A program made the position numbers and the translations under genes. The notes under the pieces are model-generated. The model saw only the letters and a program-made list of their open reading frames with translations, made no database searches and was not told the DNA's origin. From Candidatus Krumholzibacteriia bacterium (GTDB lineage: Bacteria; Krumholzibacteriota; Krumholzibacteriia; WVZY01): a stretch of 50,319 nucleotides of DNA. Positions 21,001 to 49,994 of the stretch are shown piece after piece; position 1 is the stretch's first letter; every line of letters begins with the position of its first letter. The stretch is taken from NCBI GenBank assembly GCA_036478295.1, contig JAZGDW010000297.1, forward strand, positions 1 through 50,319. Reading direction: 5' to 3'.

Positions 21001-21119
21001 ATGACGCCAAGGCCTGGCTGAGGGATTTCACGACGGAGAGCGGCGAACACCCCTACACCCACCCCGCCTACTGGGCCAGCTTCGCCCTGGTCGGCGACCC
21101 CTACTGGGCAACCTACTGA
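18069..21119 (+). CDS. Exported TPR-repeat plus CHAT (caspase-like) domain protein; Tyr at the catalytic His position
   Basis: Hydrophobic N-terminus; many LG..HP..A..L..LA TPRs; CHAT motifs VVPSGPM..IP.E.L, LPRL.GT..E, HLATYA, VTLSAC, AGARSVV..RW.V.D, HPAYWASF. Confidence 0.88.
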   Translation: MKNRSAVRKHSFTRALIIATTAVFLPGPPGATPPADEQDQLLQGLRNKIVELRSGGNFAAAVTLAEEVASTLQSEPTARLDQMVDAEWLLRTTRMLAALPDSSQAKMVLVEAWKREYRGLLDQRAYERAEGIIARVIVAQKDILGTVHPETAGTLVELARVHMQQLQYASADSLFYEGLSIQKSTLGEIHVDVASTLSSRAQLFAGMKRFSAADSLSRQALVIRVKVLGDDDPEVARSLQDYAAVRIRLQDPVAAEVFLRKAQDILRDRYGESAPAVVRQMQNLADLLAAHCDHAAAARLHEKTLEIQLQKYGANHLHVALLRKDLAKSLAALGDYKTSEVMYREALDVLYKRLDPNHEIVAQVLNDLGMVLLRMGNIGEAVGQFDRAVAICRHVHGPGGIAEAAVLISYGTLFQETRDYAKAREYFSQATEIYRERMGETSPLFAGALFQMARALTGQHEYGQARLLLIEACRILENNRRRLRNCRCSMDPPYARVTPYRLLAFNELQMNNASAAFDALERDYADSLVTRFDTRWFRRLNAAEARQERYVQETVVRLEQLVANRFVDANAPRKDTDRESMRAQLARAQQSWDILQERLRARYPADEGYAFGLRDIQSSLQAGAGLVGWMDVAETRYVYLVPPYGDVVWEELDPPGDDSLYTRFKSMLVDPRSDDAELGRLAAEVYRLRLGPLEPYLQRMTTLYVVPSGPMVGIPVEILPVDGRPIGSGRTVCYTPSASFFRWLRARPRSTVPASMLAIGDPPFNDEQARDMYLGDHGPGADAGLSGPEREELFAAVVEGRPAAAEGLPRLTGTRLEIESFANMFAPNTVLLGLDASEARIETMTRTLSDFGFVHLATYAITDDVRGERSSLVLSQSDGADVLDSIVRGRRLVDGRLTVEEILRDWRLEAEVVTLSACQNHGTRLGSGFGFAYVFLRAGARSVVFNRWYVADTPTRILMKRFYHNLAERRLDKTRALDDAKAWLRDFTTESGEHPYTHPAYWASFALVGDPYWATY

Positions 21120-30811: not shown

Positions 30812-31462
30812 ATGGCGAATCCACATCGAGACAGCGGGCAATGGCTCACCCTGGCACAGGCGGCACGCGAGCTGAGCGTGCATCCGACGACCCTGCGGCG
30901 CTGGGCCAATAACGGGGACATCCCGGTCATGCTCACGCCCGGTGGCCACCGGCGTTTCGCCGCATCCGACGTGACGCGGTTTGCGGAGGAGCGCCATGCC
31001 GTTCGTCCCGCCGGCGGCATCGAGCACATCTGGGCTACCGACGCGCTCGAGCGGACGCGGCGGCACATGATGGACCACAAAGCCCCGGACTGGATGAGCC
31101 GTTTCGATGCCAAGGCGCGAGAACAACACCGCGTCCTCGGCCATCGGCTGATGGAGTTGATACTCCAGTACGTTAGCGAGGATAACGGCGACGTGCTGCT
31201 CGACGAAGCGAGGGCCATCGGCTGCGAGTACGCGAAGAACGCGGTGCGCCTGGGCCTGACGTTGAAGGTGGCGCTGGAAGCCTCGATGTTTTTCCGCGAC
31301 GCGCTGATGGGCTCCACCATGGAATTGCCGGACAAGGTAAAGATACGTTCCGAGGACAAGATGCGGCTGCTCGGCCGCATAAACAAATTACTCAATGCCG
31401 TTCAACTTACAGTCGCAGAGGAATACGATGCCAACGATACCCATCACCTGTCTGGGTCTTAG
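30812..31462 (+). CDS. MerR/excisionase-type HTH regulator with a helical C-terminal putative sensor domain
   Basis: WLTL.QAA..L.VHPTTLRRWA..G.I....TPGGHRRF; first gene of the hem operon and overlaps hemA. Confidence 0.85.
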   Translation: MANPHRDSGQWLTLAQAARELSVHPTTLRRWANNGDIPVMLTPGGHRRFAASDVTRFAEERHAVRPAGGIEHIWATDALERTRRHMMDHKAPDWMSRFDAKAREQHRVLGHRLMELILQYVSEDNGDVLLDEARAIGCEYAKNAVRLGLTLKVALEASMFFRDALMGSTMELPDKVKIRSEDKMRLLGRINKLLNAVQLTVAEEYDANDTHHLSGS

Positions 31463-32735
31463 TCATGATACTGCTCCCCTCGAATTGAGGGAGCGTCTCC
31501 GTTGTACACTGGCGAAACTGGACGACGTGATCCGTCCGACCAGCGGCTGCCAGCGGTTCGGCGGCTGCCGCGAGTTCGCCGTGCTCTCCACCTGCAACCG
31601 CGTCGAGATCTACGCGAGTATGGATCCGGACGCGGGTGACGCGCGTACCGTTCTGTCTGAAATCGTTACCGAAGCGACGGGAGTGGACGTCTCGCGCTTC
31701 GCCGACTATCTCTATTACTACAACGACATGGACGCCGTCGAGCACTTGTGCCGGGTCGCGGCCGGCCTGGAATCCCTGGTCCTGGGCGAGCAGCAGATTT
31801 TGGGGCAGGTGTCCGACGCCCTGCATGAAGCGGTACAGCTTGGCACCACCGGCCCCCAAATCTCGATGGCTTTTCACACCGCCATCCGCGCGGGGCGGAA
31901 AGCGCGAACCGTCACGGGGATCGGTCACAATCCGGCCAGCCTGAGTTCGGTGGCCATCGCTTATGCCCAGAGAAAGGTCGGCGACCTCGCGGACCGGCGC
32001 GTGCTGGTGGTCGGACTGGGCGAAATGGGAAACCTGACCCTCAAAGTCTTGCGCTCACGCGGAATCAACAGGGTCTCCATCGCCAACCGCACCTTCGAAC
32101 GTGCGGCGGCCGTTGCCAAAGAATCCGGATACGAAGCTTTTTCCTTGAGCGACCTGCCGCGCGCGCTCGCGTTGGCCGACATCGTCATCGCGGCTACCGC
32201 GTCGCCCGACATTATTATGACGCCGCAAATGGTGCGTGACGCGACTGCCGAGCGCAACGGACGCGAGCTGGTCCTGATCGACATCGCCGTGCCGCGCAAC
32301 ATCGATCCTGCCGTTGCCGACCTGCCGGACGTGTCGCTGTGCGATACGGACAATTTGCAGGGGACGCTCGACGAAGCGTTGTCCCAGCGTCGCAAGGAAA
32401 TCGCGCCCGTCGAAAAGGTCATCGCCGAGGAGATTACAACCCTGGAGAAGGAGTTACAGGGGATGTCGTTCCGGCCCCTGATTACGGAGCTTCGCCAGAA
32501 GGTGGAATCGATCCGTCAGCAGGAACTCAAACGGGCGTTGCACCAGATGGGTGAGCTCGATTCTCAGACGATGGAACAGATCCAACACTTCTCGCGTTCG
32601 CTGGTCAACAAGCTCATGCACAGGCCGACCACCCGACTCAAACAAGAGGCTAGCAACGGACACGCCGAAGATTACGAGGCGACGGTCCGGGCTCTTTTCG
32701 GCCTATCGGAGGACCGTGAAGGCTCGGTGCGATGA
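31428..32735 (+). CDS. hemA: Glutamyl-tRNA reductase
   Basis: GLSH.TAPLELRE, LSTCNRVEIY, GLESLVLGEQQILGQV, VGLGEMG, DIAVPRNI; GAGG RBS before ATG 31428. Confidence 0.96.
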   Translation: MPTIPITCLGLSHDTAPLELRERLRCTLAKLDDVIRPTSGCQRFGGCREFAVLSTCNRVEIYASMDPDAGDARTVLSEIVTEATGVDVSRFADYLYYYNDMDAVEHLCRVAAGLESLVLGEQQILGQVSDALHEAVQLGTTGPQISMAFHTAIRAGRKARTVTGIGHNPASLSSVAIAYAQRKVGDLADRRVLVVGLGEMGNLTLKVLRSRGINRVSIANRTFERAAAVAKESGYEAFSLSDLPRALALADIVIAATASPDIIMTPQMVRDATAERNGRELVLIDIAVPRNIDPAVADLPDVSLCDTDNLQGTLDEALSQRRKEIAPVEKVIAEEITTLEKELQGMSFRPLITELRQKVESIRQQELKRALHQMGELDSQTMEQIQHFSRSLVNKLMHRPTTRLKQEASNGHAEDYEATVRALFGLSEDREGSVR

Positions 32736-34444
32736 GTGCCACCAACCGGCAAACCGTCACGATCGGCACACGCACCTCGAAGCTCGCCCTGTGGCAGACC
32801 AACCATGTGATCGAATTGTTGAAGGCCGCGTGGCCCGGCATACAATGCCGCACGCGCGCCTACGTTACCGAAGGTGATACCCGGCACGACGTCCCCCTGC
32901 CCAATATGGGCGGCCGCGGTGTCTTTACCACGCTACTGGAATCGGCGCTTCTGGCCGGGGAAATCGACCTCGCCGTACACTCACTAAAGGATCTCCCGAC
33001 CGACGAGAATCCACAGCTCACCGTGGGCGCCGTCCCCGGACGCGAGGATGCACGGGACGGGCTGGTCGCCCGCAACGGCGAGACCCTCGACACGCTGCCC
33101 AGGGGTGCAGTAGTGGGCACGAGCAGCACCCGGCGCCGGGCGCAGCTCCTGTCCATTCGCCCGGATCTTTCCATCCGGGAGATCCGGGGCAACGTGGACA
33201 CCCGTGTACGCAAAGTGATGCAGGGCGACTACGACGCGACCGTTCTGGCGGCCGCCGGGCTTCGCCGCCTGGGTACGGAGGATGTCGTCAGCGACTGGCT
33301 GCCGCTCGACGTCATGCTGCCTGCACCCGGTCAGGCGGCCCTGGCTGTGCAATGTCGCCGGAGCGACACTCGAGTCATAGAGCTTCTCGCCGCCATCGAC
33401 GACGTTGACGCGCGACGAAACGTAACGGCGGAACGAAGCTTTCTCGCGGAACTCGGCGGCGGCTGCTCGCTGCCGGTGGCCGCCTACGCGACATCGAACG
33501 GCAACGCGGGGGGCATTCACCTGTCCGGCGTGGTCACCTCGCCCGACGGGCGGGAGGTCATCCGTGTCGAAGGCGAGGGCGAGGACGCCGCCGAGCTTGG
33601 CGTTACCCTCGCCCGGCAGGCGCTCGAGCGCGGCGCCCGCGAGATCCTCGACGCCTTCGGCGAAACGTCGCCGCTGCACGGCAAACGTATCGTGGTGACC
33701 CGCGCGCGTCACCAGGCGCGCGATCTGAGCGAACGACTGACCCGACTCGGCGCGGTGCCCTTGCTGGTGCCGACGATCGAGATCGCACCGCTGCCGGATC
33801 TGCACGAGCTCGATGAGGCACTGCAGGCGCTTGACACCTTCGATTGGGTCGTCTTCACCAGTGCAAACGCCGTCGATATCTTCTGGCAGCGGCTCGAAGC
33901 CGGTGGCATGGCCGCAGACGCCCTGGGGACAGTGAGGACGGCCGCCGTGGGGCCGGCGACAGCGGACGCGCTCCGTGAGCGCGGGCTGTCCGTGGACGTC
34001 GTGCCCGCCGAGTACGTCGGCGAAGCGGTGGCAAAAGCGCTCGGTGACGTGGCAGGAATGTGCGTCCTGTTGCCGAGCGCGGAGATTGCGCGTGAGGAAT
34101 TGCCGGCCGCACTCAGCGCCGGAGGCGCTGTCGTAACTGATATTAAGGTGTACCGGACCGTGCCCGTTCGTATCGCTGCTGATCAACTCGACGAATTGAG
34201 ACAAGCGGATGTCATTACATTCACCAGCGGATCGACTGTCCGCAATTTTCAAGCGGAAATAACGAAGTACGGCGAAGGCGCTGCTATCATGGAACGGGCG
34301 CTCATCGCATGTATCGGCCCCAAGACGCGGGACACGGCAGTAGCGCTGGACATCAAAGTTGATATTACGGCGGGTGAGTATACGAGCCAAGGGCTCGTGA
34401 ACTCCCTGGTGGAGTATTTCAAAGAAGGTCGAGACAATGATTGA
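32732..34444 (+). CDS. hemC: Fused hydroxymethylbilane synthase / uroporphyrinogen-III synthase (HemC-HemD)
   Basis: [40 protein letters not shown]; then [35 protein letters not shown] (HemD). Confidence 0.94.
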
Positions 34445-35546
34445 GAAAACTTCGAAGAAGAACAAGAACCCGGAAACCCCGGACACCAGGGCCGCAAGGG
34501 CACCCGGGCGTAGTTCCGGCGAGGTGCAGGTTCCCTCTCACAGCCCGTTCTTTCGACCGCGGCGCCTGCGCCACACGCCCGCGCTGCGCGGCATGGTTCG
34601 GGAGACGGAGCTAAAGAGCACCGATTTCATCTACCCCCTCTTTGTCACGCACGGTCAAAACGTATGTAATCCGATTCCGTCCATGCCCGGTGTGTTCCAG
34701 CTTTCCATCGACCAGCTTCCCGGCGAGGCCGATTCGGTGGCCGCGCACGATATCCCAGCCGTGTTGCTCTTCGGCATTCCCGCCGCCAAGGACCCGGTCG
34801 GCGCGGAGAATTTCTCCGACGACGGCATCGTTCAGCAGGCAATTCGCAAACTCAAGGAAGCCAACCCCGATCTCGTCGTGATCACCGATGTTTGCATGTG
34901 CGAGTACACGGACCACGGCCACTGCGGTGTGCTCAACCCGAGCGGACCCGACGGAACGCATCCCCATCTTGGAGAGGGTTACGTCCTGAACGATGAAACA
35001 CTCGTCATTCTCAATAAGGTGGCGCTTTCCCATGCCCGCTCGGGCGCCGACATCGTCGCCCCGAGCGGCATGATAGACGGCATGGTATACTCGATCCGCA
35101 ACGCGCTCGACGCAAACGACTTTTCCCACCTACCGATCATGTCCTACGCGGTGAAATACGCGTCAGCGTTTTACGGTCCGTTTCGCGACGCGGCCGACGG
35201 CGCACCCAAGTTCGGCGACCGCAAGACGCACCAGATGGACCCCGCTAATTCGCGCGAGGCGCTGCGCGAAGCGGCGCTGGACGTGGAGGAAGGTGCCGAT
35301 TTTCTCATGGTAAAACCCGCGCTCGCCTACCTGGACGTCATCCAGACATTGAGCGGTGAATTTCCCGAAGTACCGCTCGCCGCGTACAACGTCAGTGGTG
35401 AGTACTCGATGCTCAAGGCGGCCGCCGCCAACGGGTGGATCGACGAACGCGGCGCGGTGCTGGAAACCCTGACCAGTATCAAGCGCGCGGGCGCCGATCT
35501 GATTATCACCTACCACGCGAAGGATGCTGCGAAGTGGCTGAAATGA
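34437..35546 (+). CDS. hemB: Porphobilinogen synthase (Zn-binding Cys motif)
   Basis: [50 protein letters not shown]. Confidence 0.97.
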
Positions 35547-36637
35547 CACCACGCCCCGCGGCCGGAAAGAAGAGCGGTGGGGCTGGCACCGGCGAACAAC
35601 CCGCGGCGCCTTTCCTGCGTGCGTGCCGCCGGTTGGTGGTCGACTACACGCCGGTCTGGCTCATGCGCCAGGCGGGGCGGTACATGACGGAATACCGCGA
35701 GCTTCGCTTGCGCCACGGGATGCTCGAGATGATCGACACACCGGAGCTGGCCGCCGAGGTCACGCTGCAGCCGATCCGTGTGTTCGGCTTTGACGCAGCG
35801 ATTATCTTTTCCGATATTCTGCCGCCGCTGCGAGGCATGGGCCTCGACCTCAAGTTCGAAAAAGGCGAAGGACCGGTGATTCGCCCCCGCATCCAACGCC
35901 CCGACGACGTCGAACGATTGCTCACCCCGCCGGCCGATATCTCCATGCCCGGCACCCTGGCCGCGGTGCGGCTGGTTGCGGCCGAGCTCGCACAGACAGG
36001 CACGCCGCTCATCGGTTTCGCGGGCGCACCGTTTACGCTGGCAAGCTACGCCATCGAAGGCGGCACTTCCCGCAATTTCACGCGCACCAAGTCTTTCATG
36101 TACCACGAACCGCAGGCGTGGGAACAGCTGATGAACAAGCTGGTCACCGTGCAGGCCGACTACCTGCTCGCCCAAGCGGAAGCGGGTGCGGACGCGCTGC
36201 AGGTGTTCGACTCGTGGGCGGGCATTGCTCTGGACATGCAGGATTACAAGCGCTTCGTTTGCCCGTACAACACGATGCTCTTCGGACGGCTCGAGAAAGC
36301 AGGCGTCCCCGTGATCAATTTCAGCACCGGTACCGGCGCCTATCTCGAAGAGGTGGCCGCGTGCGGCGGCGACGTTATCGGCGTGGACTGGCGGGTCCAC
36401 CTCGACGACGCATGGGGACGGATTGGTGACGGGCGGGCGATCCAGGGCAACCTCGACCCGGCGATGCTGCTCGCCCCGTGGCAGGAGCTCCAGGTTCGCA
36501 TCGACGCCGTGCTCGATCGCGCCGGCGGCCGGCCCGGGCACATTTTTAACCTCGGACACGGCATTTTTCCGGAGACGCCGATCGACAACGTGCGGCGGCT
36601 CGTGGATTATGTGCGCGAAAAAACACGCAAGTCATGA
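35543..36637 (+). CDS. hemE: Uroporphyrinogen decarboxylase
   Basis: [45 protein letters not shown]; ATGA overlap with hemB gives start 35543. Confidence 0.97.
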
Positions 36638-37920
36638 CGAACACCGACAAATCGAAAGCTCTCTTCGCTAAGGCGCTCACGCGGCTGCCCGGAGGCGTGG
36701 ACTCGCCGGTGCGCGCGTTCCGCGCGGTCGGCGGAGACCCGCTTTTTATCGAACGCGGCGAAGGTGCGTATCTCATCGATGTCGACGGCAACCGCTACAT
36801 CGATTACGTCCTCTCCTGGGGTCCGCTAATTCTCGGACACGCCCACCCGCGTATCGTGGGCGCGCTCGTCGAGGCCACCGCACATGGGACGAGCTACGGC
36901 GCGCCGAGCCCGCTCGAACTGGAGCTGGCCGACCTCGTCATGTCGCTCATGCCGAATATTGAGATGATCCGCTTCGTCAATTCCGGCACAGAGGCAACCA
37001 TGAGCGCCCTGCGCCTGGCACGGGCCTTTACCGGCCGCGACAAGATCATCAAATTCGAAGGAAACTATCACGGACACGCCGACATGCTGCTGGTCAAGGC
37101 CGGCTCGGGCGTGGCGACGCTGGGCCTGCCCGACTCGCCCGGTGTCCCGGCGGCGGCAGTCGCGGACACACTGATCGCCCGGTACAACGACCTATCCTCC
37201 GTCGAGCGGCTTTTCGGCCGGCACGACGGATCGGTCGCCGCCGTCATCGTCGAGCCGGTCGCCGGCAACATGGGAATGATCCCGCCGGTCGGCGGTTTTC
37301 TCGCCGGCCTGCGCGAACTCACCAGCGACGCGGGCGCGCTTCTCATCTTCGATGAAGTGATGACGGGGTTTCGGGTGCACCCCGGTGGGGCGCAGACCCT
37401 GTACGGCATAACACCCGACCTGACGACGCTCGGCAAGGTGATCGGCGGCGGTTTGCCCGTCGGCGCCTACGGCGGGCGGCGCGAGATCATGGAGATGATC
37501 GCGCCCGCCGGACCCGTCTACCAGGCCGGCACCCTTTCCGGCAATCCGCTCGCAATGCGCGCAGGGATCGAGACACTAAAGATGCTGAAAGCGCCGGGCG
37601 TGTGGGACGCTATCGACGCGGCGGCCGCGCAGCTGGTCGCGGGTATCGGCGCCTCGGCCGCAGCGGCCGGCGTGCCGCTGCAGCAATCGCATGTCGGTAC
37701 CATGTTCGGTCAGTTCTTCATCGATGAAGCGGTCGTCGACTGGGCAACGGCGAGCCGCGCAGACGCCGGACGGTTCGCGGCCTTCTTCCGCGCCATGCTC
37801 GAGAACGGCGTCTACATCGCTCCCTCCCAGTTCGAAGCGGGATTCCTCTCGGCGGCGCACGACACCGCGGTCATCGAACGCACGATCGAGGCGGCGAAGA
37901 CGTCGTTCGCCGCACTTTAA
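36634..37920 (+). CDS. hemL: Glutamate-1-semialdehyde 2,1-aminomutase
   Basis: [60 protein letters not shown]. Confidence 0.97.
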
Positions 37921-39906: not shown

Positions 39907-41664
39907 ATGCGCAAGATCGTTCTTCTCCTTACCATTTTTGGCATCGTAACGATAGCCACGACAAATACTTATTCGCAGACCCGTGCGAAATGGACGCGGG
40001 CGCTCCAAAAGGCAGCGCGGACTGAAATCGAGCCGCTGGCCGCCTGGGTCTTCTTTGCCGACAAGAGCACGAATCCGGCCGCCCGCCTGGCCGAGGCCGA
40101 GGCCAATCTCACGCCCCGGGCGCGCAACCGCCGTCTGCGCAACCGCGGGGCGGGCAATCTCGTGGACCACTACGACATCCCCGTCAGCCCGCGTTACGTG
40201 CAACGCGTCGCCGCCGGCGTCCGTCGCATCCGCAACACTTCGCGCTGGTTGAACGCGGTGGCGGTCGATGCCACGCCGGCCGAACTCGAGAGACTCGCGG
40301 CGTTTCGTTTCGTCACCAAAATTGATCTTGTCCGCCGCGACCGGGTGCCGGAGCCGGTACGCGAAGACGCCCTGGCGCCCCCGATGCGAGCACCGTCGCC
40401 CTCGCACGCGGCCAACTACGGGCCTTCTTTTACGCAGAACGATCAGATAAACGTGCCGATGATGCACGATCTCGGCTTCAGCGGCAATGGTGTCATGATT
40501 TGCATGCTCGACGCGGGGTTCAACAACCTCGACCACGTCGCGCTCGATCACCTCGACATTCTCGTGACGCGTGACTTCGTCAACGGCGACAGTATCGTCT
40601 CCGACCAGGCGGGACAGATGGGCAGTGGGAACCACGGCACGTGGACGCTCGGCGCGATCGGTGGTTTCGAACCCGGCCAGCTCATCGGACCGGCGTGGGG
40701 TGCGACCTACATCCTCGCCAAGACCGAGAATACAGTTTGGGAAAAGCATATCGAAGAAGACGCCTGGATAGCGGGCGCCGAATGGGGCGACAGCATTGGC
40801 GCCGACATCATCAGCAGTTCTCTGGGGTACCTCAACGGGTTCACCTCTCCGGACCCGAATTACAACTGGGCGGATATGGACGGTAATACAACCATCGTAA
40901 CCATCGGCGCCGACATCGCGGCCGGGCGCGGCATGCTGGTCGTCAATTCCGCGGGCAACAATTCGCTCGCGCCGCCCGGCACCAACTCGCTGATCGGTTC
41001 CGCGGACGGTGACAGCGTGCTGGCAGTGGGCGCGGTGGACAACTTGGGAGTCCGTACGAGTTTCAGCTCCGTCGGCAACACCGTCGACGGCCGTATCAAA
41101 CCCGACGTTATGGCGATGGGCCAGGGGGTACGCACGGCGAGTGCGACCGATCCGACGGGGTACAGCAGCCTGAGCGGTACCTCACTCTCCTGCCCGCTGG
41201 TCGCGGGAGTGGCGGCGCTGATGCTCGAAGCCAATCCGGCGCTGACCAATATGGAGATCATCGACGCGCTTCGTAACACCGCCGATAACGCCGGCTCGCC
41301 CGACAGCCTGGTTGGCTGGGGAATCATCGACGCACACGCAGCCACGTTCAGCACCCTCACCGGCATCAAGGACGGTACGCCGCCGCCGGAGCTCGTACTC
41401 TACCCGGCATTCCCCAACCCTTTCAACCCGACGACGACGCTGCGCTACGAGCTGCCCCACACCGCCCACGTCGTGCTGAGCATTTACAATGTATTCGGTC
41501 AGCAAATCACGACGCTGGTCAACGAAACCCAGTCGTCAGGCTTGAAGTCGATCATCTGGAACGGCACCAACCGGAGAGGTCACAAGGTCAGCTCGGGTCT
41601 CTACATTTATCGCCTGCAGGCGGGTGAGCTACGCGAGAGCCGCAAGATGATGCTGCTCAAATGA
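39907..41664 (+). CDS. Secreted S8 (subtilisin-like) serine peptidase with a C-terminal FlgD-Ig/sorting domain
   Basis: Catalytic triad LDAGF / NHGT / GTSLSCP, NSAGN oxyanion motif, KPDV.A.G; tail PNPFNPTT...IYN..GQ...WNG....SSGLY.YRL. Confidence 0.93.
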   Translation: MRKIVLLLTIFGIVTIATTNTYSQTRAKWTRALQKAARTEIEPLAAWVFFADKSTNPAARLAEAEANLTPRARNRRLRNRGAGNLVDHYDIPVSPRYVQRVAAGVRRIRNTSRWLNAVAVDATPAELERLAAFRFVTKIDLVRRDRVPEPVREDALAPPMRAPSPSHAANYGPSFTQNDQINVPMMHDLGFSGNGVMICMLDAGFNNLDHVALDHLDILVTRDFVNGDSIVSDQAGQMGSGNHGTWTLGAIGGFEPGQLIGPAWGATYILAKTENTVWEKHIEEDAWIAGAEWGDSIGADIISSSLGYLNGFTSPDPNYNWADMDGNTTIVTIGADIAAGRGMLVVNSAGNNSLAPPGTNSLIGSADGDSVLAVGAVDNLGVRTSFSSVGNTVDGRIKPDVMAMGQGVRTASATDPTGYSSLSGTSLSCPLVAGVAALMLEANPALTNMEIIDALRNTADNAGSPDSLVGWGIIDAHAATFSTLTGIKDGTPPPELVLYPAFPNPFNPTTTLRYELPHTAHVVLSIYNVFGQQITTLVNETQSSGLKSIIWNGTNRRGHKVSSGLYIYRLQAGELRESRKMMLLK

Positions 41665-41830: not shown

Positions 41831-44143
41831 ATGCGTTTCCCAGTCATTGGCAGATGCCTGCATGCACTCACTCGACTCACCCGCCACCACGGAGGCTCGG
41901 GCGGCGGTCCGGAGCGACGCGGTATGTGGGCCGTATGTTCCCGTCTGCCCCTGACCGTTGTGCTTGCCGTGGTGCTGCCGACAGCCGCGGGCCCGGGGCC
42001 TTTTGTCGCACAAACAGCGCGGGCCAGCGAGGGTATGTGGCTCCTGCACGCGCTCGACACGGCACCGTACAACGAGTGGCGTTCGCGCGGCCTCGAGCTC
42101 GACCGGTACCAGTTATACGACCCGAAGCGTACCGACGTCTCCGACGCCGTGATCAAGCTGGGCGGCGGGACGGCGAGTTTCGTATCGCCGGAAGGCCTCA
42201 TCGTCACCAACCACCATGTCGCCGCCGGCGCCCTGCAGCGCGCGAGCTCGGTGGAGCACAACTATCTCGAGGACGGCTTCTACGCGAGCACGCGATCGGA
42301 GGAGATCCCCGCGCAGGGTTACGACGCGTACATCCTGCAAAGCGTCGAGAACGTGACCAAGGACGTCATGCGCAAAGTCAAGAAGGACATGAGCAACCTG
42401 GAACGGCACAAGGCGATCGAAAACGCTGAGAAAAGAATTATCGCCAGGGCGGAGAAGGGCAAAGACGTCGAGGTTGACGTGAGAAGCATCTACGGCGGCT
42501 CCGAGTATTATCTCTACACGTATTTCAAGATCAAGGACGTCCGTGTCGTGTACGCCCCGCCGAAATCGATCGGCGTCTATGGCGGTGATATCGACAACTG
42601 GATGTGGCCGCGCCACACGGGTGATTTTGCTTTTTTGCGCGCTTACGTCGGACCCGACGGCAAGAGCGCCGACCACTCCGAGGACAACGTACCGTACCGT
42701 CCGCGGAATCACCTGGCGTTTTCCACCTCGCCGCTCAAAGCGGGCGACTTCACGATGGTAATCGGCTACCCGGGCAGAACGAGTCGCCACCGTTCCTCGT
42801 ATTCGATCGACTACGTGGTCAACCGTTACTATCCCAGCGCCATCCAGCGTTACGAGAATCTGCTCGCCATTCTCGAAGACGAATCGGCGAAGGACCCACA
42901 GGCCAAGATAAAGCTCGCATCCAGTGTCAGCGGGCTCAACAACGGCTACAAGAACAACCAGGGCATGCTCGAAGGTTTGGAGAAATACAACCTTCTGGAG
43001 ATGAAGCGCGAAGAGGAAAAAACACTGCGCGCGTTTCTCGAGTCGCATCCCGACGCGGCCGCCAGGTACGGTGGCGTCCTGGATGGTCTCCGCGAGCAGT
43101 ATGACGAGTACATCAAAATCTCGCAGCAGAACAGCACGCTCCGCTGGATGCTCTATATGAACAACGCGATGCGCTCGGCCTACAGGGTTTACAAATGGAA
43201 CATCGAGCAGGAGAAGAGCGACACCGAACGCGATCCGGACTACATGCCCCGTGACGAACCCCGTTTGCGGCGCGGTCTCAAGCTGGCGGACAAGAGGTAC
43301 CACGAGGGGGCCGACAAGCGGATCCTGAAGTACTTTCTCACCCGGGCGGCGACCTTCGAGGCGGGCGAGCGCTTCGCCATCGTGGACAAGATCGTCGGGG
43401 CAAAGGAAGGCGAGGCGATGGAGCGGGCCATCGACGAGTACGTCGAAAAGCTTTATGCCGGCACTCGGGTCACCGACCAGAAAACCCGTCTCGAGATGTT
43501 CGACGCCGGCAGCAAGAAGCTGAGGGCCAGGAACGACCCGTTCATCGAATTGGCCGCGGCGCTCGAAGTGGAGAAGGTAAAGTTCGAGGAGATGACCGAC
43601 AGCTTTGACGGCGCCGTGCAAAGGCTCCGACCCAAGCTGATCGCCCTGCGCCAGGAGCACCGCGGCGGCACATTGTATCCAGACGCCAACCGCACCATGC
43701 GTCTTTCCACCGGCGAGGTCAAAGGCTACTCGCCGGCCGACGCCGTCACGTATGATTTCCTGACCAGCCTCGGCGGCATCATCGCCAAGCACACCGGCGA
43801 GGAACCGTTCGATGCGCCGGACCGCCTGCTCGAACTGTACCGCAATAAGGACTTCGGTGTGTACGCCGACCCGACGACCGGTGACGTACCCGTGTGCTTT
43901 CTCACCACGGACGATATCACCGGCGGCAACTCGGGCAGCGCCGTGCTGAACGGCAAGGGTGAAATCATCGGGCTGGCGTTCGACGGCAACTACGAGTCTA
44001 TCTCGTCGGACTACCTGTTCCTGCCCGGGCTTACTCGTTGCATCTCTGTGGATTCACGCTACATCCTTTTTATCCTGGAGAAATTTTCCGGGACCCACGG
44101 GCTGCTCGAGGAATTGACCGTCGAGCAGCACGCAAGAATGTAG
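41831..44143 (+). CDS. S46 family dipeptidyl peptidase (DPP7-like)
   Basis: EGMW, TNHHV, DNWMWPRHTGDF, YPDAN.T.R, ITGGNSGS, AFDGN.E; AAGGAG RBS before ATG 41831. Confidence 0.93.
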   Translation: MRFPVIGRCLHALTRLTRHHGGSGGGPERRGMWAVCSRLPLTVVLAVVLPTAAGPGPFVAQTARASEGMWLLHALDTAPYNEWRSRGLELDRYQLYDPKRTDVSDAVIKLGGGTASFVSPEGLIVTNHHVAAGALQRASSVEHNYLEDGFYASTRSEEIPAQGYDAYILQSVENVTKDVMRKVKKDMSNLERHKAIENAEKRIIARAEKGKDVEVDVRSIYGGSEYYLYTYFKIKDVRVVYAPPKSIGVYGGDIDNWMWPRHTGDFAFLRAYVGPDGKSADHSEDNVPYRPRNHLAFSTSPLKAGDFTMVIGYPGRTSRHRSSYSIDYVVNRYYPSAIQRYENLLAILEDESAKDPQAKIKLASSVSGLNNGYKNNQGMLEGLEKYNLLEMKREEEKTLRAFLESHPDAAARYGGVLDGLREQYDEYIKISQQNSTLRWMLYMNNAMRSAYRVYKWNIEQEKSDTERDPDYMPRDEPRLRRGLKLADKRYHEGADKRILKYFLTRAATFEAGERFAIVDKIVGAKEGEAMERAIDEYVEKLYAGTRVTDQKTRLEMFDAGSKKLRARNDPFIELAAALEVEKVKFEEMTDSFDGAVQRLRPKLIALRQEHRGGTLYPDANRTMRLSTGEVKGYSPADAVTYDFLTSLGGIIAKHTGEEPFDAPDRLLELYRNKDFGVYADPTTGDVPVCFLTTDDITGGNSGSAVLNGKGEIIGLAFDGNYESISSDYLFLPGLTRCISVDSRYILFILEKFSGTHGLLEELTVEQHARM

Positions 44144-44211: not shown

Positions 44212-45117
44212 ATGATTCCCATTCTCGCACTGCTGTGGGCCGGTCTTTTGGCTTCCCCGTCTCCGCGTGTCGAATATCATCCCGCCGCGGTGCAACTTCC
44301 TCTCACTATCAAGGATAACGACTGGAAACCGCTGCGTGAATGGACCGACCCGCGTCTTCAGTACGAGCTGAGCAAGCGCTTGCTCGCAAACAAGCGCTGG
44401 AGATCGCTCATCGGACGCGGCAAGATGTCCGTCGGCCTGGTCGATCTTCGCGACCCCGCCCGGATCCGGTGGGCGCAGGCGAACGGGGACATCATGCTGT
44501 ACGCGGCGAGCCTGCCGAAGATAGTGGTCCTGCTCGCTGTCTACCGGGCGCTCGAGGACGGAACGCTGACCGAAACGGAGTCACTGAACAAGGACCTCAT
44601 TGACATGATCCGGTTTTCGAGCAACGCGGCCGCGACTCGCTTCATCGACGATCTCGGGTTCGACCGCATCGAGGCGGCGGTTCTCGACCCCCGCGTCAAG
44701 TTCTACGATCCGGAGAACGGCGGCGGTCTCTGGGTCGGCAAACGCTACGCTCAGAGCGGTGAGCGGCGCCCGGAGCCGGTGAGGGGCCTGGTCCACACGG
44801 CCACAGTGACCCAGGTGTGCCGGTTCTACTATCTGCTCGCCACCGGGCGCCTGATAGATGCGGAGCGCTCGAGCCAGATGCTCGAAGTGCTGTCGCAACC
44901 GGACACGAAACACAAGTTCGTCCTTGCACTCGGCGATATCGCCCCCGGCGTGACCGTGTACCGCAAGTCCGGTACGTGGAAATCGTGGCACTCGGATTCA
45001 GTTCTGGTGTGGGGTGAGGGACGGCACTACATACTCGTCGCCCTAGTGGATGATTCTCAGGGCGAACAGTTACTCCGAGACCTGGTCTCCATCGCCGAAA
45101 ACGCACTGAACGGTTGA
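44212..45117 (+). CDS. Exported serine hydrolase, class A beta-lactamase/PBP fold
   Basis: Signal peptide MIPILALLWAGLLA; SxxK (ASLPK), SxN (SSN), KSG; start could also be ATG 44206. Confidence 0.85.
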   Translation: MIPILALLWAGLLASPSPRVEYHPAAVQLPLTIKDNDWKPLREWTDPRLQYELSKRLLANKRWRSLIGRGKMSVGLVDLRDPARIRWAQANGDIMLYAASLPKIVVLLAVYRALEDGTLTETESLNKDLIDMIRFSSNAAATRFIDDLGFDRIEAAVLDPRVKFYDPENGGGLWVGKRYAQSGERRPEPVRGLVHTATVTQVCRFYYLLATGRLIDAERSSQMLEVLSQPDTKHKFVLALGDIAPGVTVYRKSGTWKSWHSDSVLVWGEGRHYILVALVDDSQGEQLLRDLVSIAENALNG

Positions 45118-45210
45118 GGCACTCGTTGAGTTCATCCCGGCGCGCTCCCTCGAAAGTAATCCGGCGAAAACTGGCTGAACCATCGCGATGGCGGGTCCGA
45201 GATTACACAC

Positions 45211-46524
45211 TCACCGGGCCAGGATACGGTCTATGTAGGTCGCGAGGGTCTGGTGTTCGACGGCCGAGTTTATCTTGAGCACGTTCGACATGAGCGCGAC
45301 CAGGTACAAGCGGCCGTCGGGTTTCTCCACGATCGCAACCGAGTTCATGTAGTTGTCCACGTTTCCCTGGTACTTGCCGCATTGAAATCCGGGCTCTTTC
45401 TTGCAGCGGTAGAGGCTTCCCGACTTGAAATACACCGCCGCTTCCGCCAGCGCGGGAGAGGACGCGTAGCGAATACGCTTTTCCGTCATGTACATCAGGC
45501 GTTTGAGTTCGAGACTCGACCATACGTCCACCACGCGCCCCTGTTCGATTCTCAAGAGAAAGAGCAGCAGCGCGCGCGGAGACGCATAACTCTTCACCCC
45601 TGGAACGATACGCTTTCCCGCCCGCGTAAAGAAACTTCCCTGGCGCCACTCATCCTCCCCGATACCCAGTTCCCGGAGCGGGTCGTTTACGACCGATACC
45701 GCAATTTTCTGCAGCTCGGCACGGGGTGTTTCTGTAAAAAAAGAGTCCTCAGCCGCCGGTGCCGGTGGGTAATCCCGGCCGAAGACACGCATGAGCATGA
45801 CTTCCTTCCACACCGTGCTCGCTGCGGCGTTGGCACTTGCGGAGAGCATGTGATCGAGCCACTCGTACAGCGAGAAAACATCGCCCTGTCGTATTCTGCG
45901 AAATCCCACTTCGCGGGTGTCCGGGTCGAACAGCGGCACCTTGTGATGGTCTTGGACGATCCACTTGCCGGCGGTGACCTCGCGGTTACGCAGGAGCGTT
46001 TGCCTGGAATCGACGTCGTCGGGGTAGCGTCGCGCGAGCTCGGCAAAGAGCCCGACGGCGATGGCCAGCTTGCCCACGCTGCCCGGCGAATACAGAACAT
46101 CCGGCCGCATCGAGGCAAACCGCATCGGGCGGCCCGGCGTTATTTCGAGTAGCGCCAGCGAGTAGCTGGGGTCACGGTCGGAGAACAGTCGTTCGATCTC
46201 GCGGGAGAGCGCGGCATCCGGCTCCGGAAAATCCGTATCCAGGCCACCAGCGCGGATCGGGGCATCACCGGCGGGAATACCGCCCGGCGCCGTGTTCCCA
46301 ACAGCCCCACCGGTGCGCACCGCATGAAGCCAGATGTCAGCGATCCGTTGGCGCCCACCACCGACAGGCACCGTACCGTCGAGTTCCCCGACCAGTCGGA
46401 GCCGTAGCCGCTCTAACCGGCGAATACCGGTCAGCACATAACCGTCGATGGGGTACACCCAGGACGCGTTCGGCGTCAGGAGCAAGAGAGCCGCAACAAC
46501 CGGTAATGCCCGCCAGAGTTTCAT
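45211..46524 (-). CDS. Exported serine hydrolase, divergent beta-lactamase/PBP fold
   Basis: Signal peptide; SxxK (GSVGK), SxN (SAN), KSG (FKSGS); Cys pair C-x7-C; starts 3 bp after the dikinase stop. Confidence 0.8.
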   Translation of the reverse strand: MKLWRALPVVAALLLLTPNASWVYPIDGYVLTGIRRLERLRLRLVGELDGTVPVGGGRQRIADIWLHAVRTGGAVGNTAPGGIPAGDAPIRAGGLDTDFPEPDAALSREIERLFSDRDPSYSLALLEITPGRPMRFASMRPDVLYSPGSVGKLAIAVGLFAELARRYPDDVDSRQTLLRNREVTAGKWIVQDHHKVPLFDPDTREVGFRRIRQGDVFSLYEWLDHMLSASANAAASTVWKEVMLMRVFGRDYPPAPAAEDSFFTETPRAELQKIAVSVVNDPLRELGIGEDEWRQGSFFTRAGKRIVPGVKSYASPRALLLFLLRIEQGRVVDVWSSLELKRLMYMTEKRIRYASSPALAEAAVYFKSGSLYRCKKEPGFQCGKYQGNVDNYMNSVAIVEKPDGRLYLVALMSNVLKINSAVEHQTLATYIDRILAR

Positions 46525-46527
46525 GGT

Positions 46528-49500
46528 CTATCCGTTTCGGGCGTGGACTGTATCGCCCGGAGACACCCGCACACCTTTACGCGGCTCCGTGTCCATCGCG
46601 CGAAGGTACGCGGACGAGCGTGCCCGCTCGTTTTCCACCAGCGGGCGAACCTGAAAGAGCCACACACTGCCGCCTGCAAAACCCAACTCGACGTCGTACG
46701 GGCCCTCGAAGCCTTCGCCGAGGACACCGGCGAGCGCCTGCTTTATTTCGGCGGCAAGCGTACGCAGCACCGCTCGCTCCTCCGCGGTCAGGATCGGCCG
46801 GCTGAAGCCCGTGTACTCCCGGCTCGTGCCACCGGCTGCCGGCAGGCGCGTGTACCGCCCCGCCCGCGCAGGGGCGAGCAGGATGTCCGCCCCGTCTTCC
46901 CGCAGCAGGTACATCTCCGCGGCCTGTCCCGCGACCGCGCCCCCCGCGCCGCGGTTGAAGGCAACGGTCACATCATTCGGGTTGGCGGATTCGAGGCCGG
47001 TCGTAATCATGACGCCGGACTTGTCCACGTCGATGCTCCGCAGGATGAGGATGCTGGGAAAAACGTTCTCCGGGTTGGCGAGATAACGCTGGCGCCAGCG
47101 GTAACTACGCTCGGAAAACGGCGAGGCCCAGACGTCGCGTATCGCCTGCAGGATGTTTCCCTCGGCGACGACGTTGGCCGCCGTCAGGTTCAACCCGGCG
47201 CCGGTAAAATCCGCCAGGTCCTCCATGTTGGTGTCGCTGCGGATGAACACCGGTACCCGTCCCAGCGAATCACCGAACACGTCGTAAAAAACGCGCGCGA
47301 AGGCCTCTCGTCCTTCGGGCAAAACCGGCATCCTGCCGATGGCGTCCCGCAACAGCGACAGCCTGGACAGCACGTACCCCGCAACCGCGCCCTCGCTTCC
47401 CGTGCTTTCCCGGTGGCGTTCCGCGCGGCGAAACGTCTCCTCGAGGAATTGCCAGTAGGATTCGTCGGCGCCCGGCATGGGCCGGTCCATGTGCCGGCGG
47501 AACACGCCGAAAGGTATCACCAAACCCGGGGCGACCCGGTGGGGGAAGAGGAGTTTGAGCTGCCCGAGGTTTGCCGCTTTGGGTCCGCAGATCCGCCCTG
47601 AATCGGATGCGCGGAGTGAATCCAGAGTGATGACACGGGCGATGTCAATGTTGAGCTTGTCCGTCGGCACCGCGATTTTTTGCCCGGCCGGACCGCCAGT
47701 GCCGATAAGATCTTTCTCTTCCGTTGTCATCTTCGACGCGGGCTTGATAACCACGTTGCCTCGCGGTGACACCGCGTAGAATACACGGTCGCCCGCGTAG
47801 TCGAGCAGCCGTTCGAACGTGCGCTGCGTGATGGCCGCGTTGGGAATACCGAGGTTGCGTGCGAGCAGCTGGACGTGGGAAACAGCGTTGCCTTCGGAAA
47901 CACTAACGATGCCCGCCACCGGCTCGAGATCGGCCGGCGGGTACGGCAGCACGTAGATTTTTTCGGGTGAAAAGGATACCTCGCCGGTTATTTCTTTTAT
48001 CACCTCGAGCTCACCCACGGCGAATCCCGGGTTCAACCCCCGGATCTGGACGCCCCCGCCAAGGTCGAAGACACGGTTGGTGACACCCGCGAGGCGGGCG
48101 CCCTCACGCATCAACCGGCCGGCCGCATCACCGAGCGGCAACAGAATCGATACACGAATGCGGTCATCGACAAAGCCGAGCGCCAGCGGCTCGAACTCCG
48201 CGTATAGCGCGATCACAGACTCGTACGCCACACGGGTCATGGCCGCGCCCCATTCCACCGCGCGCCGCGCCGCATCCACTTTTTGCGAGAACGCGGCCAG
48301 CGTTTCCGTCGAGTCCGCAACCTGCAGGATTGGCTGCAACTCGCCCCATTCCCACACCTCGACGAGCCCGCACCCCGCGGCCGCTTTCGCCAGCACTGCG
48401 GTCAAGGCCACCAGCCCACCGATGGTTTCCGGCCGCCACTCGGGGACCGTTCGCAGGAGAATCGCCTCGAGGTCCAGCGACAAGTCCATCATCGCCAGCC
48501 GGGTGGCGCCGTCGCCTGGTGAAGAAATATATTCACGAATGGTCCACAGCAGATCGGCGATCGCCCCGCACTTCACAGCAGTCGGGTTGCGGACGACGGG
48601 CACTGCGGCGGCAACCGTGTCCACGCCGGCCTGCGCTTGGGTCGTGTCCGTTTCCGCGGGCGTCGGCGCGATGGCCGTGCCGGGCTCCTTTGTGACCGGT
48701 TGCGCCCAGCCGACCACGTCCGCCCGCAGGATCGCCCGCAGCGCTCGGGCGACGGGACTGTCTTGCGGTATCCGGCCCAGGTACCGTTCCAGGCTCGAAA
48801 CGGTGGCCGAGCGGTACATCGTTTCCAGGTCACGCTCGAGGGCCTGCAACTGCTCGAGGAGATCCGGGGAAATCTTGTTGCGATGCCGCCCGATGAACGC
48901 GGTAACGCGCTGCCGGTCCGCTGCGTCCGGACGCCCATGGATCTTGATGCGGATATCCATGAAGGCGGGATACACATCGGCGATGCGTTTCGACATCGCC
49001 CGGACACGAGGCGCCCTGCCCTCGATCTCACGGTGGGGAATATCACGGCTGATCTCACGCCCCAGATAGAACTGTGACGTGAGGACCCAATCTGGTGCCA
49101 GGAGCCACGCGAGAAATTCCGCGCCCCAGGCGGATTCGTCCTCCGCCTGTACGGCGCCTCGGTAATGTTGGGCGCGCCTCATGATCCACCCGTCGTCGGC
49201 GGCGCGGAGGAACTTCTCCAGCTGAAACTGTTTCAGCCTCGAGAAACCGTTCGTTCCGTCCAGAAAAATGTCAAAGGGAGTTCCCGCGAGTATCTGTCCA
49301 AAATAGATGCCGAGCTCCTGCTCGATCTGGAGCGTTACATCCTTGGGCACGGCGTGTTGCATGCCGCCCGGCTCCGGGCAGGGATCCTTTGCGGCACGGA
49401 CCGTGCCGTCGGCGCAGAACCAGGCAATACGTTTGTAGGGTCCGCGTGGGTCCTTCTTGAAAGCCTCGACCAGGGCAACCAGGTCGCTGGCTTCCCTCGT

Positions 49501-49584
49501 CTCCGGCGTCCCGGGAACAAACAGGGCAACGGCGGTCAGGGCGATGATCAGGGTGATACGGTTGAGTTTCGAGTCAGCGGTCAT
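46528..49584 (-). CDS. Dikinase-like protein with a predicted N-terminal export signal: large unknown N-domain, phospho-His swivel domain, C-terminal PPDK-type ATP-grasp
   Basis: Hydrophobic N-terminus; EGNAVSHVQLLARNLGIP (His570); GPKAANLGQL, PGLVIPF, FIRSDTNMEDL..FTGAGLN, VWASPF, SGVMIT, DVELGF...WLFQVRP; no PEP/pyruvate TIM barrel. Confidence 0.85.
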   Translation of the reverse strand: MTADSKLNRITLIIALTAVALFVPGTPETREASDLVALVEAFKKDPRGPYKRIAWFCADGTVRAAKDPCPEPGGMQHAVPKDVTLQIEQELGIYFGQILAGTPFDIFLDGTNGFSRLKQFQLEKFLRAADDGWIMRRAQHYRGAVQAEDESAWGAEFLAWLLAPDWVLTSQFYLGREISRDIPHREIEGRAPRVRAMSKRIADVYPAFMDIRIKIHGRPDAADRQRVTAFIGRHRNKISPDLLEQLQALERDLETMYRSATVSSLERYLGRIPQDSPVARALRAILRADVVGWAQPVTKEPGTAIAPTPAETDTTQAQAGVDTVAAAVPVVRNPTAVKCGAIADLLWTIREYISSPGDGATRLAMMDLSLDLEAILLRTVPEWRPETIGGLVALTAVLAKAAAGCGLVEVWEWGELQPILQVADSTETLAAFSQKVDAARRAVEWGAAMTRVAYESVIALYAEFEPLALGFVDDRIRVSILLPLGDAAGRLMREGARLAGVTNRVFDLGGGVQIRGLNPGFAVGELEVIKEITGEVSFSPEKIYVLPYPPADLEPVAGIVSVSEGNAVSHVQLLARNLGIPNAAITQRTFERLLDYAGDRVFYAVSPRGNVVIKPASKMTTEEKDLIGTGGPAGQKIAVPTDKLNIDIARVITLDSLRASDSGRICGPKAANLGQLKLLFPHRVAPGLVIPFGVFRRHMDRPMPGADESYWQFLEETFRRAERHRESTGSEGAVAGYVLSRLSLLRDAIGRMPVLPEGREAFARVFYDVFGDSLGRVPVFIRSDTNMEDLADFTGAGLNLTAANVVAEGNILQAIRDVWASPFSERSYRWRQRYLANPENVFPSILILRSIDVDKSGVMITTGLESANPNDVTVAFNRGAGGAVAGQAAEMYLLREDGADILLAPARAGRYTRLPAAGGTSREYTGFSRPILTAEERAVLRTLAAEIKQALAGVLGEGFEGPYDVELGFAGGSVWLFQVRPLVENERARSSAYLRAMDTEPRKGVRVSPGDTVHARNG

Positions 49585-49994
49585 TTGCGTTCATTCGTCG
49601 TCCAAAGAGAGAGGATGATTACATCGAACACAAATAATAGAACGTACGGACAGTGCTGTCGAGCAGCTTCAACATGATGGGGTCAGCCGTCGCGCGGGGG
49701 GACAACAGGCCAACGGTCAGGGGGGTGGTTAGCGGACTTCTCTATTGGTCGCGTGCACCCCGGGATTTCTTACACGTCTGGTCGGGTGCGCCTGAAGTTT
49801 CGAACACGTCGATTCCGGAGCGGCGTTTGCCCGCATGGATTCTCCGGCGTTTTCTTGTAAGCAAACCGTCGACTCCTCTCACTAATCTATGACAGCAAGA
49901 ACGATCGCACAACAGGGAGGGAAGGGATGTCGCCGCGCAACCGATGGGACCGGCGTGGCGGCATTGTGGCGATCATCAAGAAGGAGGTTGTGGG

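Follow-up and report, generated by a model that had tools for sequence, protein, structure and literature searches.

In the parts of its published account considered here, the potato glucan water dikinase GWD1 consists of two CBM45 domains, a central domain of 20 helices, a phosphohistidine (His) domain and an ATP domain, in that order, and its His domain is proposed to swivel between the ATP domain and the central domain (J Biol Chem 2026, PMC13553574). Fusions of nucleotide transporters (NTTs) with HEAT repeats are, according to the portions consulted of another study, monophyletic and widespread in free-living bacteria, with their function left open (Major, Embley and Williams 2017, PMC5381601). 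Here we describe a gene cluster centred on a predicted exported dikinase whose domain order resembles that of GWD1, which is joined in most lineages by an NTT-like transporter fused to HEAT repeats. It was found in a 50,319-nucleotide stretch (henceforth the window, in whose positions all coordinates are given unless stated otherwise) from Candidatus Krumholzibacteriia bacterium (GenBank assembly GCA_036478295.1, contig JAZGDW010000297.1, positions 1 to 50,319). The dikinase gene (46528..49584, minus strand) encodes 1018 aa and is followed 3 bp past its stop codon, according to the open reading frame (ORF) list, by a gene for a 437-aa serine enzyme with the fold of PBP-A and class A β-lactamases (45211..46524, minus strand). 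A second PBP-A-like serine enzyme of 301 aa, counted from the Met at 44212 (44212..45117, plus strand), converges on this pair across a gap of 93 bp. We propose, at a probability of about one in two, that these genes form a phosphotransfer module of the cell envelope which consumes periplasmic ATP.

A Pfam scan of the dikinase, which was delimited by its 1018-aa ORF, its PPDK_N domain and its homologues, returns PPDK_N (PF01326) alone, over residues 667-991 (67.6 bits against a cut-off of 27), and no phosphoenolpyruvate (PEP)/pyruvate TIM barrel; the His-domain family PF00391 is not matched at E ≤ 0.01. The His domain was located by profile comparison. When an 18-member family profile was run against PDB sequences, the C-terminal domain aligned to residues 105-364 of the PEP synthase 8a8e, and the segment before the ATP-grasp to its residues 384-466, which puts the conserved GN.VSHVQLLARNLGIPN of the dikinase (GNAVSH570VQLLARNLGIPN) on GG.TSHAAIVSRELGIP of 8a8e. 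Residues 519-602 also weakly match positions 819-902, the His-domain end, of an NCBIfam PEP synthase model. On these grounds we recognize a mobile His domain of the PEP-utiliser type at residues ~516-610 (47755..48039, minus strand) and a C-terminal ATP-grasp nucleotide domain at residues ~651-1003 (46576..47634, minus strand), an order that is permuted relative to PEP synthase and pyruvate phosphate dikinase (PPDK). The PPDK_N ATP-grasp and a catalytic His within a G-x-x-S/T-H motif, both seen here, are features of the histidine-swivel dikinases (PEP-utilising enzyme superfamily). An earlier note on this DNA, made from the letters alone, had read the same GWD-like order, an intact phosphohistidine (His570, codon 47875-47877) and a C-terminal ATP-grasp devoid of a barrel, and all three readings held. 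Across 18 aligned dikinases conservation spans the whole length of the protein, and Cys57, Cys69, His570, Lys669 (in CGPKAANLG), RSDTNMEDL, D964/E966 and Q978/R980 are invariant; the ATP-grasp motifs CGPKAANLG, RSDTNMEDL, D.E.GF and LFQ.RP are conserved in the family. A 95-sequence alignment likewise shows the Cys pair and the His to be at least 90% conserved. The early Cys pair had been given in the note as WFC-x10-CP; it is present and invariant in all 18 proteins, but its spacing is WFC-x11-CP.

Between the N-terminal 27 residues and the His domain lie residues 28-515 (48040..49503, minus strand), presumed to form the substrate or acceptor domain. An AlphaFold2 model of this region based on the 95-sequence alignment (pLDDT 90.5, pTM 0.88) comprises a small β element bearing Cys57/Cys69 followed by ~20 helices, as expected from the helical domain of about 500 aa that had been claimed. 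A Foldseek search of the PDB with this model produced no match below E 0.1 (the best was E 0.11), and VIA-align reached Z 8.8 over 72 residues in a wide library and 8.4 in pdb_via; all the fold matches were generic helix bundles below the noise level for helical models, and model residues 1-155 were barely covered. This absence of matches is no proof of a new fold. The central domain of GWD1 (PDB 9HA9/9QVI), whose presence in the libraries is unconfirmed, was absent among the matches listed by three fold searches. No PDB sequence matched the domain at E ≤ 1. In the ESM Atlas its nearest clusters (0.84 and 0.76) are unnamed and carry PF00391 on 17-26% of their members, which is a lead only, and residues 36-240 gave no usable match there. 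The best-conserved residues of the domain are rich in Arg, Lys, His, Asp and Glu, a composition that would suit an anionic or phosphorylated ligand. Residues ~300-345 (48550-48700) hold an insert that, in the 18-sequence alignment, is found in the window protein and its two closest relatives, and it is modelled as disordered (pLDDT <50 at model residues 286-302).

The dikinase belongs to a large family. A word-indexed search with it recovered 341 proteins at E ≤ 0.001; the best 120 of these are 44-96% identical to it and have PF01326 as their sole domain, and 118 of them are 956-1018 aa long, the other two having 698 and 867 aa. An exhaustive HMMER scan of representatives at 50% identity yielded 335 dikinase clusters at E ≤ 1e-30, and a pattern scan of one genome per species places the family in at least 594 species genomes (594 confirmed among 600 stretches listed). 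In the set of 81 loci used below, 62 are labelled Bacteroidota, including cultured Flavobacteriaceae (carriers in culture include the non-pathogenic marine Bacteroidota Muriicola jejuensis KCTC 22299, Maribacter arenosus and Arenibacter troitsensis), and the other carriers are Calditrichota, KSB1, Latescibacterota, Ignavibacteriota, Rhodothermota and a few metagenome-assembled genomes (MAGs) of Desulfobacterota type or labelled Proteobacteria. The names on the listed relatives are "PEP/pyruvate-binding domain-containing protein", "hypothetical protein" and, as the earlier note had foreseen for automated pipelines, "phosphoenolpyruvate synthase". The window genome encodes two further PPDK_N proteins on other contigs; the dikinase is its third dikinase paralogue, distinct from its PEP synthase or PPDK, and the presence of the other two argues that it is not a housekeeping enzyme. 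A search at E ≤ 1e-20 revealed no longer, fused forms of the dikinase, which is weak evidence, and six shorter matches resemble fragments at contig ends. One 2038-aa frame in a one-contig MAG (locus L105, 3595-9711, on G111:C1) joins pieces of Peptidase_S46, PPDK_N, molybdopterin-binding and 4Fe-4S ferredoxin domains; we regard it as probably an assembly or scaffolding chimera, and it was left unused.

Both serine enzymes match Beta-lactamase2 (PF13354) alone above the Pfam cut-off, and the SxxK, SxN and KSG motifs with which they had been reported are conserved in both: S149/K152, S230/N232 and K367-S-G in the 437-aa enzyme, and S100/K103, S136/N138 and K252-S-G in the 301-aa enzyme. The 437-aa enzyme found nothing meaningful among PDB sequences, either as a plain query or as a family profile, and was classified through its structural model (pLDDT 89.3), for which the top Foldseek matches are structures of PBP-A (Tll2115; 2j8y and 2j7v, E 3e-11 to 8e-11) with TM-scores of 0.70-0.75 normalised to the target. 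Class A β-lactamases rank after these, and identities in the listed rows are 13-19%. The profile of the 301-aa family likewise finds PBP-A Tll2115 as its best PDB match (2j9o, E 4e-4). The mark of true class A β-lactamases is an omega-loop general base, Glu166. The 437-aa enzyme further has an invariant Cys374/Cys382 pair and an N-terminal extension of ~130 residues whose start, YPxDG..TGIRRL, is invariant. In several homologues a predicted signal-peptidase site exposes this invariant YPxDG(Y/F)..TGIRRL as the mature N-terminus. Conservation of a free N-terminus suggests that it takes part in docking or catalysis. A complex prediction pairing the dikinase N-terminal domain (residues 28-515) with the mature 437-aa enzyme scored 0.00, which is evidence neither way.

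The note had taken all three proteins to be exported, and the families behave accordingly. Export was scored by a hydropathy heuristic, namely a hydrophobic 10-mer with a Kyte-Doolittle mean of at least 2.0 before the first conserved motif. Such a 10-mer is present in 191 of 206 dikinase homologues, in 60/60 homologues of the 437-aa enzyme and in 48/49 of the 301-aa enzyme, against 6 of 237 random internal 40-aa windows used as a control; most of the 15 remaining dikinase homologues are marginally below threshold or have a short N-terminus. Residues 1-27 of the window dikinase (49504..49584, minus strand) resemble a signal peptide, with K/R followed by ITLIIALTAVALFVPG, though with no clear AxA cleavage site (VPGTPETREAS), and many homologues combine K/R, a hydrophobic core and an AQA or FSQ-type site. 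In the 437-aa family the N-termini of several homologues end in an AxA-type site just before the invariant YPxDG, for example ..SLA directly ahead of YPYDGY. The invariant Cys pairs of the dikinase and the 437-aa enzyme fit an oxidising compartment. From these sequence features we consider it very probable that the three soluble proteins are exported.

To define the neighborhood of the dikinase we clustered all ORFs from 80 related loci together with the window, 81 loci in all. Four families recur: the dikinase, the 437-aa enzyme, the 301-aa enzyme and a protein of ~940 aa; no other conserved neighbour family and no mobile-element genes were found around these loci. The 437-aa gene is present in 71 of the 74 loci with at least 1.3 kb downstream of the dikinase (the exceptions being L002, L005 and L042), lies within 700 nt in 69 of them and is separated from the dikinase by a median gap of 5 nt. 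Where at least 5.5 kb of downstream sequence is available (58 loci), the 437-aa gene occurs in 57 loci, the ~940-aa and 301-aa genes in 51 each, and the complete set of three in 48. The commonest layout consists of two convergent pairs, the dikinase followed by the 437-aa gene facing the 301-aa gene followed by the ~940-aa gene, and in a genome of the window's own class (G083) all four genes stand in a row on one strand. The three-gene linkage seen in the window is thus strongly conserved in other genomes, as the earlier note had suggested should be checked.

The ~940-aa protein, which is new here as the fourth partner, joins an MFS/TLC-like N-terminal half to C-terminal HEAT repeats and is an NTT(TLC)-like transporter of the kind termed NTT-HEAT below. 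The copy at locus L078 matches Pfam TLC (PF03219) with 30.9 bits against a cut-off of 21, and among solved structures the transporter domain finds ATP/ADP carriers of plastids and bacteria (9j3j, E 3.8e-7; 9j3n, E 8e-7). A crude count gives 9-12 transmembrane segments, and the K/R-rich loops would place the HEAT domain in the cytoplasm. In a quick maximum-likelihood tree all cluster-linked NTT-HEATs (22/22) fall into one clade with SH-aLRT support of 100.

Co-inheritance was followed in a sample of 151 genomes from one Bacteroidota family, that of the Muriicola genome (G151) holding locus L023. Thirty of these genomes have the dikinase. A full-length NTT-HEAT, the 437-aa gene and the 301-aa gene occur in 29 each, and these are the identical 29 genomes, all dikinase-positive; in the 30th the dikinase gene sits at the end of a short contig and is cut there. 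At the thresholds used, none of the 121 dikinase-negative genomes has any of the partners, bar a weak 427-aa MFS-like hit in one. All four genes are kept even where they have been separated: the transporter gene of G300 is 2 Mb away from its partners, and in G165 and G265 other members are displaced. We take the co-occurrence as strong evidence for a module rather than as a statistical test, and a conserved module is, in our judgement, almost certainly real.

The above observations suggest the following mechanism. By homology, the C-terminal ATP-grasp of the dikinase, presumably exported through Sec, would take ATP and hand its β-phosphate to His570 on the mobile domain, which would then swing to the N-terminal helical domain and phosphorylate a non-pyruvate acceptor, freeing AMP and Pi. 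The two exported PBP-A-like acyl-serine enzymes would act in the same substrate pathway, with the 437-aa enzyme probably coupled translationally to the dikinase. The module of most lineages appears to include, in addition, a dedicated NTT-like transporter of the inner membrane, its HEAT repeats facing the cytoplasm, which may export ATP, or swap ATP for AMP/ADP and Pi, thereby fuelling the dikinase in the periplasm. That the transporter supplies ATP is a proposition to which we give even odds at best. A candidate answer to the objection, raised by the earlier note, that the periplasm is poor in ATP is nonetheless at hand in the NTT-like transporter that other genomes inherit together with the cluster. 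What the analysis shows is the gene content, the domain anatomy, the conservation and the co-inheritance; export, periplasmic use of ATP and the direction of transport are inferred. As to the acceptor, we guess at an anionic compound of the envelope or periplasm, for instance a glycan or a peptide of peptidoglycan. The fullest form of the proposal is tentative and, as a whole, doubtful: some free-living bacteria would energise the periplasm by having NTT-HEAT export ATP to the dikinase, which would phospho-activate an envelope substrate (e.g. a stem-peptide carboxylate or a glycan hydroxyl) for cleavage or re-ligation by the PBP-like enzymes. We also entertained the converse, a dikinase that makes periplasmic ATP for import, and rejected it by inference on energetic grounds.

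Several considerations weigh against a periplasmic module fuelled through the transporter. The window's own lineage is an exception: neither the window nor its genome (316 contigs, 91% complete) has a transporter of the cluster clade. The sole full-length NTT-HEAT of this genome, on contig C301, has 918 aa, scores 67.8 bits with PF03219 and is 31% identical to a cluster copy, and in the tree it joins NTT-HEATs of dikinase-negative genomes in a clade sister to that of the cluster. Among 151 genomes of the window's phylum, 90 have an NTT-HEAT of this type and 6 the dikinase. Two relatives (G112 and G027) share the three-gene layout of the window, have no transporter adjoining the cluster, and have as their only full-length NTT-HEATs members of the window genome's own type of clade. 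Hence in this lineage the dikinase must work without a dedicated transporter, and it does so either with a generic NTT-HEAT or without one; on the mechanism proposed above it may lean on the sister-clade protein from the other contig. The NTT-HEAT is also not nearby in 6 of the 57 loci that have the 437-aa gene and at least 5.5 kb of flank. Moreover, the cluster transporter scores 28.7 bits with TIGR00769, whose cut-off is 387, and the Muriicola copy (L023) has no TLC match and only a sub-threshold one to MFS_1; so divergent is it from characterised NTTs that its substrate could be other than ATP. The release of ATP into a porin-bounded periplasm would be costly. The signal peptides were called with our own heuristic instead of a trained predictor, and the genomes compared are related and not independent, so that co-occurrence counts overstate the number of independent events. 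The evidence for the module is entirely computational, and no RNA sequencing runs containing the stretch are listed.

With regard to its surroundings on C301, the generic NTT-HEAT of the window genome (locus L088, 3927-15479) lies between a gene for a calcineurin-like/PhoD-like phosphoesterase and, on its 3' side, a gene for a cyclic nucleotide monophosphate (cNMP)-binding protein. Further upstream are genes for an Omp85 protein, an unknown 567-aa protein and a glycoside hydrolase of family GH113, and downstream those for a PAS histidine kinase and a response regulator. The succession of an NTT-HEAT and a cNMP-binding gene is a pairing reported in the consulted portions of PMC5381601.

The same divergence and the same lineages leave room for a reading in which the module is periplasmic, but the NTT-like HEAT protein imports the product or a by-product (AMP or nucleotide salvage, for instance, or a phosphorylated small molecule) and the phosphoryl donor comes from elsewhere. 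The characterised NTTs, as far as the consulted text of Major et al. (2017, PMC5381601) describes them, all import nucleotides into the compartment bearing them; the cluster transporter is too divergent for its substrate to be assigned; and lineages like that of the window keep the dikinase while dispensing with a dedicated transporter. We nevertheless consider this reading unlikely, as the intact and invariant ATP-grasp motifs would still demand a nucleotide triphosphate donor outside the cytoplasm and the cluster holds no other conserved gene that could supply one. NTTs are, furthermore, exchangers, and the direction of transport follows the gradients.

The problem of ATP supply vanishes altogether if the N-terminal segment of the dikinase is an uncleaved anchor that leaves its domains in the cytoplasm, where the enzyme would spend the ATP available there on a precursor that is membrane-bound or linked to a lipid and is later processed by the periplasmic PBP-like enzymes. 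The unclear cleavage site of the window protein (VPGTPETREAS) and a topology derived from a heuristic rather than a trained predictor are compatible with such an arrangement. It appears quite improbable, however, given that the Lys/Arg residues before and the acidic residues after the hydrophobic stretch give an N-in, C-out geometry, that canonical AQA or FSQ-type sites are present in many homologues and that the invariant Cys57/Cys69 pair fits an oxidising compartment. It would also leave the co-inheritance of the NTT-like transporter (29/30 against 0/121 genomes) unexplained.

A kinase resembling rifampin phosphotransferase beside two hydrolases of the β-lactamase fold could also bring to mind an island for the inactivation of antibiotics or other xenobiotics. 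The weak similarity to the rifamycin phosphotransferase model over the ATP-grasp (45 bits), the class A β-lactamase fold of the partners and the patchy, accessory distribution (30/151 and 6/151 genomes in the two samples) all agree with this. However, the other NCBIfam matches of the dikinase (PEP synthase, PigC/RedH and rifamycin phosphotransferase) span the ATP-grasp alone and are far below cut-offs, which for the rifampin phosphotransferase type are 999-1350 (NF041857 gives 45.1 bits against 999), and the order of the domains is not the same. By fold and by profile the partners come closest to the DD-peptidase-like PBP-A, with true β-lactamases behind it, and the 81 loci lack mobile-element genes and other conserved neighbours. 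On balance we rate such an island as very unlikely. Finally, an ordinary, mis-started PEP synthase or PPDK of central metabolism, as some sources name the relatives automatically, is scarcely credible for a protein without the barrel, with a permuted order, a best PEP synthase equivalog score of 75 bits against a cut-off of 883 and an N-terminal 500 aa conserved at full length in hundreds of homologues, in a genome that has other PPDK_N genes; the view of the earlier note that it is no such enzyme stands.

If the proposal of a periplasmic, ATP-using phosphotransfer module is true, it would mean that ATP drives reactions in a compartment which, by the textbooks, lacks it. The biochemistry of the Gram-negative envelope starts from the assumption that ATP is absent beyond the inner membrane, and the near-perfect co-inheritance makes this assumption testable in cultured marine Bacteroidota. 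The module would also give the widespread NTT-HEAT fusions their first functional context and, should the transporter prove to feed the dikinase, their first function. The analysis also defines a large family, present in at least 594 species genomes, to which pipelines wrongly give the name PEP synthase. We found no description of an exported dikinase or of this gene cluster in a literature search that did not extend to subscription journals and the supplements of Major et al.

Base composition throughout the region is unremarkable. About 50 nt upstream of the dikinase start a sigma-70-like promoter match (49634..49662, minus strand) agrees at 10 of 12 hexamer positions; it is weak evidence, with 3 such sites in the region against 1.6 expected. 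An S46 dipeptidyl-peptidase (41831..44143, plus strand; Pfam Peptidase_S46, E 6.5e-229) is encoded 68 bp upstream of the 301-aa gene in the same direction. It has no homologue in the 80 related loci and is a neighbour in the window genome only, outside the conserved module. Upstream of it, at 39907-41664, is an S8 subtilase with a C-terminal sorting domain of the type IX secretion system (T9SS) kind; S8-like ORFs stand near the dikinase in 5 of the 81 loci including the window, downstream of it in L002 and L005, both of which are without the 437-aa gene, and upstream in L011 and L029. Farther away, a 919-aa ORF (1998-4757, minus strand) combines transaldolase and phosphoglucose isomerase domains and adjoins transketolase and 6-phosphogluconate dehydrogenase-like genes, a 1016-aa protein (18069-21119, plus strand) has TPR and CHAT (caspase-like) domains, and a haem biosynthesis operon (31395-37920, plus strand) includes a fused porphobilinogen deaminase/uroporphyrinogen-III synthase of 570 aa. 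The three proteins of the window cluster match no defence system in PADLOC.

The cluster can be compared with several described systems. The serine enzymes share the fold and the SxxK/SxN/KxG triad of PBP-A (Tll2115, from Thermosynechococcus) and of class A β-lactamases, but identities in the Foldseek rows of the 437-aa enzyme are only 13-19%, and this enzyme differs in its N-terminal extension and invariant Cys pair. The transporter, with an NTT/TLC-like domain and C-terminal HEAT repeats, resembles the NTT-HEAT fusions of Major et al. (2017, PMC5381601), the consulted portions of which mention no linked exported dikinase or PBP-like genes. The dikinase shares homologous ATP-grasp and phosphohistidine domains, catalytic motifs included, with PEP synthase and PPDK, from which it is set apart by being permuted, free of a barrel, predicted to bear a signal peptide and below all equivalog cut-offs. 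Rifampin phosphotransferase and PigC/RedH, the models of which it matches with 45-57 bits, use the same ATP-grasp and swivelling-His machinery on a non-pyruvate acceptor; unlike the window dikinase, they have an N-terminal ATP-grasp, a C-terminal His domain and a cytoplasmic location. Another parallel is GWD1, which, in the sections of PMC13553574 considered, has the same order of substrate module, His domain and C-terminal ATP domain, and likewise a domain of about 20 helices directly before the His domain. Unlike GWD1, the window dikinase has no CBM45, CBM20 or other carbohydrate-binding family (Pfam, E ≤ 0.01), and in contrast to that plastidial enzyme it is bacterial, predicted to be exported and linked to PBP-like enzymes and a transporter. 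In its domain logic it would be a bacterial counterpart of the plant glucan water dikinase.

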